Below the pieces are notes generated by a model that was given only the letters and a program-made list of their open reading frames with translations, made no database searches and was not told the origin of the DNA. A DNA stretch of 36,138 nt from Candidatus Aenigmatarchaeota archaeon (GTDB taxonomy: Archaea; Aenigmatarchaeota; Aenigmatarchaeia; Aenigmatarchaeales; JACQIB01): positions 1-36,138 of the forward strand of contig JAWABM010000006.1 in the NCBI GenBank assembly GCA_038999215.1. Reading direction: 5' to 3'. Both the position numbers and the translations under genes were made by a program. Of this stretch, positions 7,407-11,809 are shown in pieces. Position 1 is the stretch's first letter, and the number at the start of each line of letters is the position of its first letter.

Positions 7407-7710
7407 GGTGTGCTGGACATAGCCCGTCTTCTGTGGGGCGAATCAGCGCCGCGAACGGCGCGTCCTTTGCATCGCCCGGCAACATCTGTCTTAGCTGCCT
7501 ACCCGCCCCTCTTTCCTCATCAGGGCCTACTTGGCATTGCACCGCGCCGGCATTGCCGTGAGAAACCATTACGCTCCTCTTCGGCTGCCCTGACCTCTCG
7601 GCCATGCCACTTGGTGGCGGCGCCTTTGACGGTGGACGGAACTTCCTCGAACCCTTTTCAGCGAAAAGCGTTCACGGAAAAGGATCCGGCGGTTGCCTGC
7701 CCAGCTCACC
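7407..7710 (-). ncRNA. rnpB: RNase P RNA
   Basis: The sense strand has CR-I GAGGAAGTTCCGTCC and CR-V ACAGAAGACGGGCTAT (P4). P1 is GGTGAGCTGGGCA/TGTCCAGCACACC and P2 is GGCAAC/GTTGCC; P3, P15/16 and an extended P19 are also present. TATA-like TTTTAAAA lies about 25 nt upstream. Confidence 0.93.
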
Positions 7711-8207: not shown

Positions 8208-8244
8208 TGCCGTCGCAGGAGCGCGCTTTTAAGGAGGTCTAAAC
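8208..8244 (-). other. 3' arm of the pre-23S BHB processing stem
   Basis: GTTTAGACCT-CCTT-AAA-AGCGC-GC-TCCTGCGACGGCA pairs with the 5' arm at 11677-11713. Confidence 0.9.
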
Positions 8245-8521
8245 AAAAGGCCGTTGGGCGCAGTGGGCTGAAATGGTCGCCGAAGCTTCCATCTTACACC
8301 CCTGCTCCATCAAACAGGTCGTCTAGCCTGTGGCCAATTGCCTATTTTTCCCGAACGCTTCAACCTTAGATGCCTTCAGGCTTTAGCGTCTATGGCGTAG
8401 CTATCCGGCGTTACCGCAAGATAACCGGTGTACCAGAGGCCACGAGGGGGCGTTCCTTTCGTACTTGCCCCTTCTTCGGGTCAGGCAAATGCACCTTCAG
8501 CAGATATAAACCGTACTGTCT

Positions 8522-8917
8522 TTGTCGTTCGGTGTGGGCCGCGCTATCACAATTAAATTGTGCGAGACAATCTTGAGGGCTCATCAGCTACTCTTGTTTC
8601 GGCACGTAGCCATTGGGGCGGTCCAGTCATTGCCCGGACTGCCTCGCAAAAAACCTATTCCATACCCTGGTATACCGCAGTCATCGATATGGCTACCAAA
8701 CTCTGAAAGTTTCGGTCACAGCCGGAGCTAACGCTCGGTCTATGCGGTTCATCTTAGGGATATGGAAAGCAGGATCGGTGGTGACTTCATTTATCATCCG
8801 CACGCATCAACCGCTGTCGCAGTCTGCTTTCACCTGCGCGCGTCTAGCTATCGAAATAACCCATCCTCATTCCCTGCTTGAAAGACCCGTTGAATCATGC
8901 GCATCCCACTACCAAAT
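8522..8917 (-). other. archaeal BHB intron 1 in 23S rRNA (396 nt, after the G2597 equivalent), no ORF
   Basis: The 4-bp helix GTCG/CGAC carries TGA and AAA bulges, and the intron stem is TTTGGT-A-GTGGG/CCCAC-ACCGAA. Cutting after the 2nd bulge nucleotide restores CGTCGTGAGACAG. Confidence 0.92.
8767..8879 (-). ncRNA. intron-encoded box C/D guide module with three K-turns
   Basis: The 8-bp terminal stem is AAGCAGGG/TCCTGCTT. Box pairs are C ATGAGGA/D CCGA, D' TAGA/C' ATGATAA and inner GTGAAAG/TTGA. Guides match 9211-9220 and 9007-9015. Confidence 0.72.
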
Positions 8918-9081
8918 CACGACGTACTGAACCCAGCTAATGTCCCCCTTTAATCAGTGAACACCTGCACCCTTGGCTACAGCTGCGCAGCCAGGAGGGG
9001 GGAAGCCGACAGCGAGGTAGCAACGCGCGGGGTCGATAGGAGCTCTCGCCCGCCACGACTCGGTTATCCCCGGGGTAGCTT

Positions 9082-9207
9082 AATCAGGTTACGGGCACCG
9101 AATGCGGGCAGAGGCCGTCTTCCCGACAATTGCAACTCGTCATGGCTATCGCCACAACTGATTCCAAAATTAAAGACCGCGTCTCTGCCCGCCCGATATC
9201 CGAAACT
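9082..9207 (-). other. archaeal BHB intron 2 in 23S rRNA (126 nt, after the A2433 equivalent)
   Basis: The helix TCAG/CTGA carries AAA and TTA bulges, and the long intron hairpin includes a perfect GCGGGCAGAG/CTCTGCCCGC. Splicing restores TCAGAAAAGCTACC. Confidence 0.93.
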
Positions 9208-11676
9208 TTCTGAAGTCACCGGCATCCATCAAGGACAGACTGGTGTATCGCTAGCCCACGCTTTCGCGGCTGGATCCTTTACTTTGAAGGGTCCAGTCAG
9301 GCTTCCTTTTGCGCTTACACTCTACTCCCGATTTCTGACCGGGATGAGGAAACCTTTGGGCACCCTTGATCTTCTGTCAAGGGTGTACCGCCCCAGCCAA
9401 GCTGTCCACCAACCGGTGTCCCCCCGAGTTGAGGGTTAGCCATATGTTCACAAAATGGCAGTGTTACATTGTCGCCTATCCGATGCCCAAAAGCATCGGC
9501 ATGACGGCTCCTGCCTACGCTATGAAGCCGCAAACATACAGCAACGACAGGCTACAGCAGAGCTCCACGGGGTCTTCTCTTCCCTCTGAAGGTCTGTGGC
9601 CTATTCACCACAATAGCAGGTTCGCCGGGTTCCAACCCGGGACAGCGAGGATGTCGTTAACCCCTTCATGCAGGCCGACAATTAATCGGCAAGGGATTAC
9701 GCTACCTTAAGACGGTCAGAGTTACCGCCGCCGTTTACGGGGGCTTGGCCCGGTTGAGACCGGGTTTAACACACCCGCACTGGGCAGGACTCACTGACTA
9801 TACTCAGGATTTCTCCTTAGCAGTCAGCTATGTTTTTGTTAAACAGTCGCATCCTCCTTGTCACTGAGACCTACCTGATCGCCAGGTAGGCAAGGGTTCT
9901 ACCGAAGATACCCCTCTAATTTGCCGAGTTCCCTGGATTGGTGTCTCCCGTGACGCCGACGCCTTCTCAGCAAGAGTCACCTGTGTCGGTTCTTGATACG
10001 ATCGCGCCCAATCCGACAGGCCTCATTTTCATGGGCTCCCGGAATCGCCCGAACCCCGGTATACACCAGGGCTGTTATCGCCTTCGCCCGGTTCTCTCCT
10101 TGACGGAACTTCCCGGGATTGAACGGTTAACTTGCGTCGGACTATCCTGAAGCGTCTGAGGCCTGCCTTGCGTTGCCGCGTGTATGGCCGCGGTGCAGGA
10201 ATATTAACCTGCTTCCCTTTCCCGTCCGTCAGTTAAGGGGACGGTTAGGATCGACTAACTCCCGGTTGATAGACATTGCCGGGAAACTCTTGCTCTTCTG
10301 GCGGTTAGGATTCCAACCTAACTTTGCTGCTACTAACAGCAGGATTCTCATTCCCGCGCGGTCCACGCCTGCTTGCGCAGACGCTTCCGCCCGCGCGGAA
10401 CGCCTCCCTACGCTATGACTTTCGTCATCTGGGGTCTCGGTGGTGGACTTACTCCCGTCCATCTTCACCGCACTGCTCCTCGATGGGTCCGCTGTTACGC
10501 GTTGATTATCGGGTGGCTGCTTCTGAGCCTACCGTCCCACTGTTTTTGGAGAAGCACCAGCTTTGTGACTTAGCCCACACTTTGGGACCTTAACCCCAGG
10601 CCAGCTTGTTTGCTCTTCGGATACCAAGCTTACCCCGGTACCCTCACTCCCGCCTTCTACGACGCCGACAGATTATGAGTTTGACAGGAACGTCAGAGGT
10701 TTCCCTCCGTATCATCCCAATCAGTGCTTTACCCCATCGGCGGTCTCCAGCGAGGCTGTGCTGAGGCACATTTCGAGAGGAACCAGCTATCACCGCTTTC
10801 GATTGGCTTTTCACCCCTATGCCCAGGTCACCTGGCCGATTAGGATCAGGATCAGTAGCGGGCCTCCACGCGGCTTTCGCCGCGCTTCGCCCTACCCAGG
10901 TATAGATCAAGCGGTTTCTGGTATTATCCCCGTGACTCCCCGCCCTTTCAGACGGCGCCCCTGGTTGCCTGCGGGCATGTCGCTTTCGCTGCGGCTACGC
11001 GCACAGCGCTTAACCTTGCCACGAGAATAAACTCCCTGCCACGTGTTTCGAAACGGAGATCATGACGCTGCAAAGCCCTCCTCCTACACACCCATTTCTG
11101 GACTTTCGTTCGGAAGGCCGCCTTTCACGCCATGACTGACTATCACTGGCTGGTTTCAAGCTCTTTTCATCTTCTATGAAGAATGCTTTTCAGCTTTCTC
11201 TCACGATACTTGTTCGCTATCGGACTCCGGACATATTTAGGGTTGGATGTTGATGCCACCCGTCTTCCCACAGCATATCCGAGCTGAGGTACTCGATTTC
11301 CGCAATCACCTTTCCTCCCTTCCCCTAAGGGGCTATCACCCTCTATGGCACGCCTTTCCAGGCGACTTCGGGTCAGAAGGCGAAGGTGTGCGCGGCTCCC
11401 ACATCTCCCTGCGTTTCCGCAGGGATTCGGTTCGCCCTGCTCCGCTTTCACTCGCCGTTACTAACGGAATCGCATTGCTTTCTCCTCCTCCGCTTATTAA
11501 GATGCTTCATTTCAGCGGGTTCCCTTTCCCCGAAGGGAATGCCGGCCGAAGCCGGCGTGAGGTCACATTGAGCAATCCACGGTTCTAAGGCCGCTTGCGC
11601 CTCGCCGTGGCTTATCGCAGCTTGCTACGACCTTCATCGGTGCCGGAGCCAAGCTATCCACCAGACAGTTTGTGGT

Positions 11677-11713
11677 GTTTAGACCTTTACCTTAGCACTT
11701 TCCTGCAACGGCA
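11677..11713 (-). other. 5' arm of the pre-23S BHB processing stem
   Basis: TGCCGTTGCAGGA-AA-GTGCT-AAGG-TAA-AGGTCTAAAC forms a 4-bp AAGG/CCTT helix between the 3-nt bulges TAA and AAA. Confidence 0.9.
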
Positions 11714-11737: not shown

Positions 11738-11809
11738 GGAAGCTCTAACGACCGTCCTGAAGTCATCACCCTGCGGTTCCTCAGGTGTTCTGCTCTTATC
11801 ACAGCTCCC
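11738..11809 (-). ncRNA. box C/D sRNA in the 23S 5' leader (predicted Cm1920-equivalent guide)
   Basis: Terminal stem GGGAGC/GCTTCC encloses C GTGATAA, D' CTGA, C' GTGATGA and D TAGA. The D guide AGGACGGTCG is complementary to 9709-9718. Confidence 0.78.

Follow-up and report, generated by a model that had tools for sequence, protein, structure and literature searches.

A helix-93 intron of the 23S rRNA in an Aenigmatarchaeota order as a probable carrier of modification-guide RNAs directed at its host rRNA

The stretch of DNA analyzed here (hereafter, the window) comprises 36,138 nucleotides (nt) of contig JAWABM010000006.1 (assembly GCA_038999215.1) from a Candidatus Aenigmatarchaeota archaeon and includes a 23S ribosomal RNA (rRNA) gene that is interrupted by a bulge-helix-bulge (BHB) intron in helix 93. 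Comparison of this intron with those of related genomes indicates that it is probably a carrier of modification-guide RNAs that act on its own host rRNA. Three units, denoted Module A (a box C/D small RNA, sRNA), Module B (an H/ACA-like unit), and Module C (a C/D-like unit), lie between the intron ends, and three strands of the host rRNA are the predicted targets of Modules A and C (Table 1). All three target strands are in domain V, as is the intron site itself. The host genome (denoted G000) comprises 571 kb on 24 contigs and is 88% complete.

Table 1. Features of the 23S rRNA gene and its intron in window coordinates; numbering of equivalent positions is that of E. coli 23S rRNA where indicated.
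Feature	Position	Strand	Details and basis
23S rRNA gene (intron host)	8235-11686	minus	Rfam RF02540, 2407.8 bits, model positions 1-2987
BHB intron, 396 nt	8522-8917	minus	In helix-93 GNRA loop, between E. coli G2597 and A2598
5' splice site	8917-8923	minus	Helix strand GUCG 8923-8920; 3-nt bulge UGA 8919-8917; predicted cut after G8918
3' splice site	8521-8533	minus	ACCGAA 8533-8528; helix strand CGAC 8527-8524; bulge AAA 8523-8521
Module A, putative box C/D sRNA	8573-8639	minus	K-turn covariation, match to model R1, free-standing homologs
Module A boxes	8627-8631 (AAUGA); 8581-8585 (GAUGA)		Stem GGGC/GCCC, bulge AAU, GA; D-like AUGA beside stem
Module A D' guide ACCGCCCCA	8614-8622	minus	Unique P-loop complement in rRNAs
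Predicted target 1, P-loop UGGGGCGGU	9387-9395	minus	E. coli 2249-2257 (U2249-U2257)
Module A D guide GAGUAGCU (then G, then AUGA box)	8586-8593	minus	Guide-target covariation
Predicted target 2, AGCUACCC	9073-9080	minus	Helix-74 strand directly 5' of GGGGAUAAC
Module C, C/D-like unit	8767-8879	minus	Terminal K-turn in 5/5 family-f1 genomes
Module C elements	8775-8778 (D, CCGA); 8794-8798 (C', GAUGA)		Stem AAGCAGGG/UCCUGCUU, bulge AAU, GA; D' UCGA
Module C D guide UGAAGUCACC	8780-8789	minus	Between C' GA and D box, 15 nt
Predicted target 3, GGUGACUUCA	9211-9220	minus	Resembles E. coli CCGGUGGUUCUGAA, helix-88 region; mapping by eye, uncertain
Module B, H/ACA-like unit	~8652-8767	minus	Structure in 9 relatives; model R2 match 8654-8765
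Module B elements	8758-8767/8658-8667 (lower stem); 8749-8757 and 8668-8673 (pocket)		Pocket strands CUAAGAUGA and AUACCA; upper stem
Module B K-turn and box	8681-8685 (GAUGA); 8656-8658 (AUA)		

A search with exon-intron-exon DNA recovered the region in 27 of the 42 genomes of the order to which the host belongs, and an intron was present at the same site in each of the 25 genomes in which both exon flanks were located. These 25 introns are all distinct in sequence and range from 151 to 642 nt in length. The exons are adjacent, with no intron between them, in at least 27 genomes of the class outside this order. Judged by these sequences, this site in helix 93 carries a fixed intron throughout the order. 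Collecting introns at this site (between E. coli positions 2597 and 2598) from related genomes had been proposed in a preliminary description of the window that was made from its sequence alone; the collected introns are mosaics of three recurring units, in which K-turns and stems covary and in which a guide of Module A and its target co-vary as well. The three units of the host intron coincide with the three domains that the preliminary description had distinguished.

Module A was identified by pattern search in 20 of the 25 distinct introns. Its layout comprises a stem, a 3-nt bulge (R-A-U), GA, four variable bases, ACCGYCCCA, a variable hairpin, GGAGUAGCU, N, AUGA, and the closing strand of the stem. 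The three stem pairs beside the bulge of the terminal kink-turn (K-turn) are paired in all 20 copies through several pair types, and the 4b-4n pair is Watson-Crick in all 20 (U-A in 17, A-U in two, and C-G in one). Both GA dinucleotides are likewise found in 20 of 20 copies, but these were required by the pattern that selected them. In a MAFFT alignment of 19 of the copies (the near-duplicate L018 was left out), six of six K-turn pairs have changed on both sides, 89.5% of cells are paired, and the covariation score was reached by none of 500 shuffles; when partners were slid against each other, pairing fell to 9-49% of cells. Box C/D sRNAs have guide spacers of ~12 nt, which corresponds to 15 nt from the sheared GA to the next D or D' box. 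The distance from AAUGA to the D' position is 15 nt, and the free-standing copies described below, together with the copies in G016 and G024, have spacings of 15 and 15 nt.

A covariance model of Module A (R1) has exactly one match in each of 69 of the 151 genomes of the class, and we read the surroundings and guides of 43 of these at least 69 copies. Four settings were found: the helix-93 intron (20 copies, which is the setting in the order of the host genome), the 23S 5' leader (two copies), the interior of the 23S gene near the P-loop (five copies), and free-standing loci (16 copies). The two leader copies (L089 in G012 and L090 in G010) precede the mature 23S 5' end by ~45 nt, and in both genomes the helix-93 intron retains Module B only. 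The five copies inside the 23S gene (loci L099-L103, all from family f23) lie ~55 nt 3' of the P-loop, in an insertion that is short, holds little besides Module A, and could be an intron or an expansion segment; L102 and L103 apparently have one more insertion within the P-loop sequence itself. The 16 free-standing copies have AT-rich 5' flanks, 3' T-runs, and no rRNA within 1.5 kb, and none of these loci matched an Rfam C/D family at the gathering score. Every one of the 23 copies that lie elsewhere than in the helix-93 intron has an xxGA sequence (CUGA, CCGA, GUGA, GGGA, AUGA, and others) at the D' position, two bases past the conserved 9-mer, and approximately 20 of them have AUGA or GUGA 15 nt upstream of the D box, which, as read by eye, amounts to a full C-D'-C'-D layout with canonical spacing. 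The best account of these observations is that Module A represents a single-copy C/D sRNA gene that would have been free-standing ancestrally in the class and would later have become part of the 23S transcript in several arrangements.

The D' guide of Module A is fully complementary to the P-loop over nine pairs, and its fifth base from the D' position pairs with G2251 (window position 9393), the predicted target. Across the 43 copies, 10 variants of the guide occur, and pairing with the invariant P-loop sequence is possible in 386 of 387 cells. Changes within the guide are limited to C or U opposite G and to A or G opposite U, whereas the flanking columns use all four bases, and none of the 43 copies has a change in the C's opposite G2250 and G2251. 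A table in PMC2584109 gives G2251 as a universally conserved 2'-O-methylation site, and C/D-guided modification of this nucleotide is predicted for three archaea in PMC4644070.

The second guide of Module A, GAGUAGCU, is the strongest one that the preliminary description did not include, and is directed at a strand of helix 74. Its core reads GUAACU, opposite an AGUUAC in the rRNA of the same genome, in G035, G029, and G026 (all from one genus of family f3) and in G012 (family f7); in all other genomes seen, the guide reads GUAGCU and the target AGCUAC. The change is an exchange of a G-C for an A-U pair between distant parts of the transcript or, in G012, between two genes. In the free-standing copies this guide is GGGUAGCU, which pairs perfectly. 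The predicted site is the U at window position 9077, the fifth position from the D box, which we place at about E. coli U2438 on the basis of the alignment and standard numbering.

Module C was seen only in family f1 (G000, G001, G002, G004, and G005). All five of these genomes have its terminal K-turn, with a 3-nt bulge, GA, and a D box of the form YBGA, and the stems differ in each of them (AAGCAGGG/UCCUGCUU, UGCUAG/CUAGCA, UUGCAAG/CUUGCGA, GGGAA/UUCCC, etc.). The C box reads AAUGAGG and the D box CCGA, and an internal D'/C' pair (UCGA / GGAUGA) is present. In five of five genomes, the sequence GARGUCAC keeps a constant distance from the D box; the spacing of the D guide is 15 nt in two of them (G000 and G001) and 16-22 nt in the remaining three. 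Within Module C, TGAAGTCACC is an exact 10-nt complement of positions 9211-9220, the target in the host 23S reads GGUGACUUC, and the predicted site is the G at window position 9217, again the fifth position. Within the order, the rRNA conserves this target (YCGGUGACUUCAGA) whether or not a genome has Module C. In G001, an A-to-G change in the guide leads to a G-U pair with the target, and in G005 a second guide, CUGAAGUCAA, can be read from the sequence against the same stretch of rRNA. A pattern search for Module C outside of family f1 returned 20 matches, compared to 11 in a reversed control; the 16 that are additional to the known intron copies look like coding sequence and were rejected.

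In archaea, H/ACA guides have an architecture of a lower stem, a pocket, an upper stem, a K-turn, and an ANA box 14-16 nt from the pocket. Module B, which is recognizable in approximately 16-18 of the 25 introns, comprises a lower stem, an internal loop, an upper stem of 5-6 base pairs (bp), a K-turn, and an apical hairpin, and is H/ACA-like by this predicted architecture. Among nine compact members, 90.6% of cells are paired, 10 of 19 pairs have changed on both sides, and none of 500 shuffles reached the score. The ANA triplet (ACA, AUA, or AAA) starts 15-16 nt past the first base of the pocket in 13 of 13 members, and the pocket strands AGAUGA / WUACC are conserved among relatives. A covariance model of this unit (R2) has matches in 14 of the 151 genomes of the class, 12 of which are in the order of the host. 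The remaining two are free-standing H/ACA-like genes with different pockets that are flanked by a promoter and a terminator; searching their own genomes for targets returned mismatched or self matches only.

A perfect 11-nt complement between the intron (CCGAAACUUUC, 8705-8715) and positions 9200-9210 was rejected as a guide: the same hairpin is found in G001, whose rRNA does not have the target. Positions 8705-8715 are in an apical hairpin inserted in Module B (GACCGAAACUUUCAGAGUUUGGU) that is identical in G001 and similar in G005, the 3' half of which resembles the rRNA sense sequence CUUCAGAAAGUUUCGG, and positions 9200-9210 are at the border of a 126-nt insertion in the rRNA. This insertion (window ~9082-9207, minus strand) is private to the 23S gene of G000 and is closed by a long stem (GGGCAGAG/CUCUGCCC); it could be an intron or an expansion segment. 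It separates the target of Module C from the D-guide target of Module A, whereas in relatives, including the same-genus G001, these two targets directly adjoin each other (GGUGACUUCAGAAAAGCUACCCC) and there is no such insertion.

The domains and guides that had been read from the window sequence alone were partly recovered by comparison, with some corrections. K-turn-type GA/GA motifs are present in all three domains, as described. The first domain retained its borders (8767-8879), while the second, given as 8656-8766, is ~8652-8767, and the third, given as 8561-8648, is 8573-8639. Closing stems of 8-12 bp had been ascribed to all of them, but the stem that is supported by covariation in the third domain (Module A) is 3-5 bp. 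Two of three proposed antisense segments, TGAAGTCACC against 9211-9220 and ACCGCCCCA against 9387-9395, are exact, whereas the third, CGACAGCGG (8811-8819, minus strand) against 9007-9015, matches at only eight of nine positions (the window reads CGACAGCGA) and sits in a stretch of ~33 nt that is missing from G001; it is not supported as a guide. The proposal of a cassette of guides aimed at the host 23S is supported by the homology of Module A to a single-copy sRNA gene that is free-standing in other families, by the pair-preserving variation of its P-loop guide, by the covariation of its second guide with the rRNA target, and by the presence of genes for fibrillarin, Nop5, and L7Ae. The middle domain is H/ACA-like rather than C/D-like, and no target was found for it.

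The position of the intron was determined from a minus-strand reading and an alignment of the intron-free sequence to the E. coli 23S rRNA, which reproduced the length and both borders given previously. With the intron, the 23S gene is 3452 nt long, compared to 2987 positions in the Rfam model. Exon 1 ends with G8918 and exon 2 starts with A8521, and joining them restores GUCGUG followed by AGACAG. The insertion site is the GUGA loop of helix 93, and the joined exons (GUCGUGAGACAG, as read from the sequence and the E. coli alignment) recover the universal sequence there. A 3-4-3 BHB motif (UGA / GUCG:CGAC / AAA) can be drawn at the junctions. Archaeal splicing at a BHB places the cut two bases into each bulge, and this would yield the joined sequence above and the exact borders that had been proposed. 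Next to the bulge, UUUGGU (8916-8911) pairs with ACCGAA (8533-8528); this intron-end helix varies on both sides between genomes, as seen by eye in the end sequences of the 25 introns. The intron-side BHB helix is strong and covaries. As had been stated, the intron has no sense-strand open reading frame (ORF) of note: the longest encodes 36 amino acids, and none of five ORFs tested on both strands matched Pfam.

Contigs from RNA run X9 (a sediment metatranscriptome) cover 8306-8521 and 8917/8918-8971, and thereby end at both intron borders, whereas contigs from DNA runs X1 and X2 span both borders. No contig within the intron and no exon-exon joint was found in X9, and nothing over the region was found in RNA run X22 (from the source study), with both results being silent on the absence or stability of the intron RNA. 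The X9 contig ends are a weak hint of splicing that comes from contigs of one RNA study. In DNA run X1 (a hot-spring metagenome, and maybe the source sample), a contig from a relative joins position 8465 to position 8949, with 88 letters in place of the 483 skipped; this is approximately the length of the two exon parts and points to a co-occurring organism without this intron. A scan of species genomes with a 22-mer of the intron recovered only a same-genus metagenome-assembled genome, and a scan of public metagenomes with the same 22-mer returned three interrelated AT-rich contigs without rRNA, which were rejected as chance matches.

Proteins that would be needed for splicing and for guide function are encoded in the host genome. 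Two catalytic (EndA) domains of the splicing endonuclease are in tandem on contig 9 (C9:9572-10359), where they could be two subunits or one two-domain enzyme, and the RtcB ligase is encoded as well. Fibrillarin and Nop5, the presence of which the preliminary description had singled out for checking, are encoded side by side on contig 14, with L7Ae on contig 13; all three score above the Pfam cut-offs. A Cbf5-type TruB (TruB_N match in a 317-residue frame) and Nop10 were also identified.

In the mechanism that we propose, the archaeal splicing endonuclease would excise the intron at the BHB, and the three K-turn units between the intron ends would fold independently. The terminal K-turn of Module A would bind L7Ae and then Nop5-fibrillarin to assemble a ribonucleoprotein (RNP), and its antisense elements would pair with the P-loop, placing G2251 fifth from D', and with AGCUACCC, placing a U (at about U2438) fifth from the D box. 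Likewise, the D guide of Module C would pair with GGUGACUUCA in the helix-88 region, and Module B has the predicted architecture of an H/ACA pseudouridylation guide. These interactions would lead to 2'-O-methylation at three sites, the guides may act either in cis, before the intron is removed from the precursor, or in trans, once it has been excised, and the excised intron may circularize. It is conceivable, but we advance it only tentatively, that the guides work in cis while the precursor is still unspliced, with RNPs inside helix 93 modifying the neighboring P-loop, helix-74, and helix-88 strands and with BHB splicing serving as a checkpoint. If true, a functional catalytic center would be released only after the target strands have been visited.

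Several observations weigh against the interpretation of the intron as a carrier of guide RNAs. Complementary 8-, 9-, 10-, and 11-mers between the intron and the mature 23S number 20, 7, 3, and 1, compared to 16.1, 3.9, 0.9, and 0.2 in 500 mononucleotide shuffles, and 11-21% of shuffles reach the observed numbers; a generic K-turn finder returned five matches in the 23S region, compared to 4.65 in shuffles. Neither the complementarity nor the K-turns of this single sequence are above chance, in line with the caveat on chance matches in the preliminary description, and the case is therefore made only by comparison with relatives. No Rfam family matched the intron at E values up to 10, and copies of Module A were gathered with a model (R1) that contains the guide, so that strongly diverged guides would escape it. 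The consensus C and D boxes are RUGAUGA and CUGA, respectively, and those of Module A deviate from it (C, AAUGACU; D, AUGA), as does its 4b-4n pair (U-A rather than G-C). Among the helix-93 copies, 12 of 20 keep xxGA at D' and four of 20 keep C', which is lost in the other 16, and the copy in the window has GGCU at the D' position, a plain hairpin, and no C' box. Given that C' and D' are degenerate in most helix-93 copies, D'-guided methylation may be weak or lost in them, and the pairing may be kept for some other reason. The D guide of the host forms only eight pairs with AGCUACCC, with one bulged or mismatched A, and on its D' side Module C has a short guide whose sequence G000 and G001 do not share. 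For Module B, no target above chance was found in the 23S, the 16S, tRNAs, or the whole genome (42% of shuffles equaled or exceeded the best pocket match, which has seven paired positions, and 78% did so for a looser score). Gar1 was not found in the host genome, which is 88% complete. Finally, the BHB has a weak outer exon-exon helix; in cofolds and folds of the flanks, the minimum-energy structure favors the native stem of helix 93 over the exon-side helix (z = -2.57).

The decay of C' and D' in most helix-93 copies led us to consider whether the K-turn units bind L7Ae while the antisense elements serve as folding chaperones or timers for the peptidyl-transferase center until the intron is removed, with no methylation. 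Such a role would fit helix-93 copies that mostly lack an internal C'/D' K-turn but have retained the antisense element for the P-loop, the non-consensus boxes of Module A, the placement of all three targets and the intron site in domain V, and the four arrangements in which the element accompanies the rRNA transcript. We nevertheless regard it as unlikely: free-standing homologs have a complete C-D'-C'-D layout with the canonical 15-nt spacing, that layout places G2251, tabulated as a conserved 2'-O-methylation site (PMC2584109), exactly at the fifth position, and fibrillarin and Nop5 are retained in a genome of 0.57 Mb. A decayed mobile intron, for example a former carrier of a homing endonuclease, would have structure for splicing or persistence only and would match the rRNA by chance, as the single-sequence statistics, the size range of 151-642 nt, and the spurious guide CGACAGCGG would allow. 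Yet no ORF or Pfam match is present on either strand, Module A is homologous to promoter-flanked free-standing genes that occur once per genome, changes in the guide are restricted to those that preserve pairing, and guide and target co-vary, which makes this explanation very improbable. The chance that the insert is not spliced at all and stays in the mature 23S as an L7Ae-recruiting expansion segment seems smaller still. DPANN rRNAs do have many insertions and the outer BHB helix is weak, but excision at the 3-4-3 motif would regenerate the universal GUGA loop exactly, the intron-end helix covaries, RNA contigs end at both borders, and an insert of 396 nt would presumably be hard to tolerate in the peptidyl-transferase center.

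Intron-hosted guide RNAs are regarded as a eukaryotic hallmark, with the intron of tRNA-Trp being the accepted archaeal case. That intron, in the pre-tRNA-Trp of Haloferax volcanii and as sR50 in Pyrococcus, is a BHB intron with a C/D guide for its own host transcript (PMC7994747), a property shared with the intron described here. Here, however, the host is the 23S rRNA, there are three units from two guide classes, and the main unit is demonstrably the same gene as a free-standing one in sister lineages. Eukaryotic intron-encoded small nucleolar RNAs (snoRNAs) are likewise guide RNAs from host-gene introns (PMC7994747), but their hosts are pre-mRNAs or non-coding host genes that are processed by the spliceosome, whereas the host in the present case is the substrate rRNA and the processing enzyme would be a tRNA-type endonuclease. 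BHB introns often hold homing-endonuclease genes (PMC6125680). The intron examined here is of the same kind as the archaeal rRNA introns that carry such genes, has the same splice motif, and is also in 23S domain V, but it has no ORF, its cargo is structured guide RNA, and its site is fixed across an order.

The free-standing archaeal C/D sRNAs for G2251 (PMC4644070) have the same predicted target as Module A, and the free-standing Aenigmatarchaeota copies share their C-D'-C'-D layout and 12-nt guide spacing. Those examined here differ in having no Rfam match, in having variant D boxes (AUGA/UUGA/GUGA), and, in this order, in being located inside an rRNA intron. Module B shares the lower stem, pocket, upper stem, K-turn, and ANA box (14-15 nt from the pocket) of archaeal H/ACA sRNAs (e.g., Haloferax sR-h45), whereas its conserved pocket (AGAUGA / UACC) is unexplained, with no target found. 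According to PMC7994747, PMC6009581, PMC6125680, PMC2584109, and PMC4644070, archaeal C/D genes are intergenic, beside tRNAs, or in tRNA introns. No guide RNA in an rRNA intron was reported in the openly accessible full-text literature that was searched.

An rRNA intron of a DPANN order would bear C/D- and H/ACA-type units directed against the catalytic core of the very rRNA in which it resides. Module A can be recognized as one and the same gene whether it is free-standing, in the leader, or in the intron, and its four settings within one class (free-standing, 23S leader, and two 23S insertion sites) would, if correct, be a prokaryotic parallel to the move of eukaryotic snoRNAs into introns. 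The system makes it possible to test how guide genes and their substrate come to be transcribed together, whether rRNA splicing and modification are coupled, and why non-coding introns stay fixed in the rRNA genes of very small genomes. A predicted guide for the universally conserved Gm2251 of the P-loop is also provided, in a lineage with few recognizable sRNAs.

Additional observations were made on Module A and on the rRNA genes. An alternative hairpin (GUCCGG/CUGGAC; window 8623-8641, minus strand) would sequester the C-like box of Module A and would compete with its K-turn stem; in G001 this hairpin reads GUUCAG/CUGAAC, with two compensatory changes. A strict canonical C/D pattern had zero matches over the host genome and zero in shuffles. 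In the 23S 5' leader (window 11738-11809, minus strand), a 72-nt unit with the appearance of a C/D sRNA comprises the stem GGGAGC/GCUUCC, GUGAUAA, CUGA, GUGAUGA, and UAGA. It has a homolog only in G001 (71% identity), in which the inner stretches GGAACACCU and UCAGGACGGUC are conserved, and has no rRNA complement of at least 10 nt; it may instead be part of a processing stem. Other 23S genes of the order have several more insertions (e.g., at query positions 24-30, ~124, and ~604), and the 23S gene of G001 has >2 kb of extra sequence in its 3' third. The 16S match of the host genome (C5:16024-17971, locus L041) spans 1948 nt, compared to 1478 positions in the model, which indicates ~470 nt of insertions; models R1 and R2 identified no copy of Module A or B in them. 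An archaeal RNase P RNA was identified at window positions 7408-7709 on the minus strand, ~500 nt downstream of the 23S 3' end.

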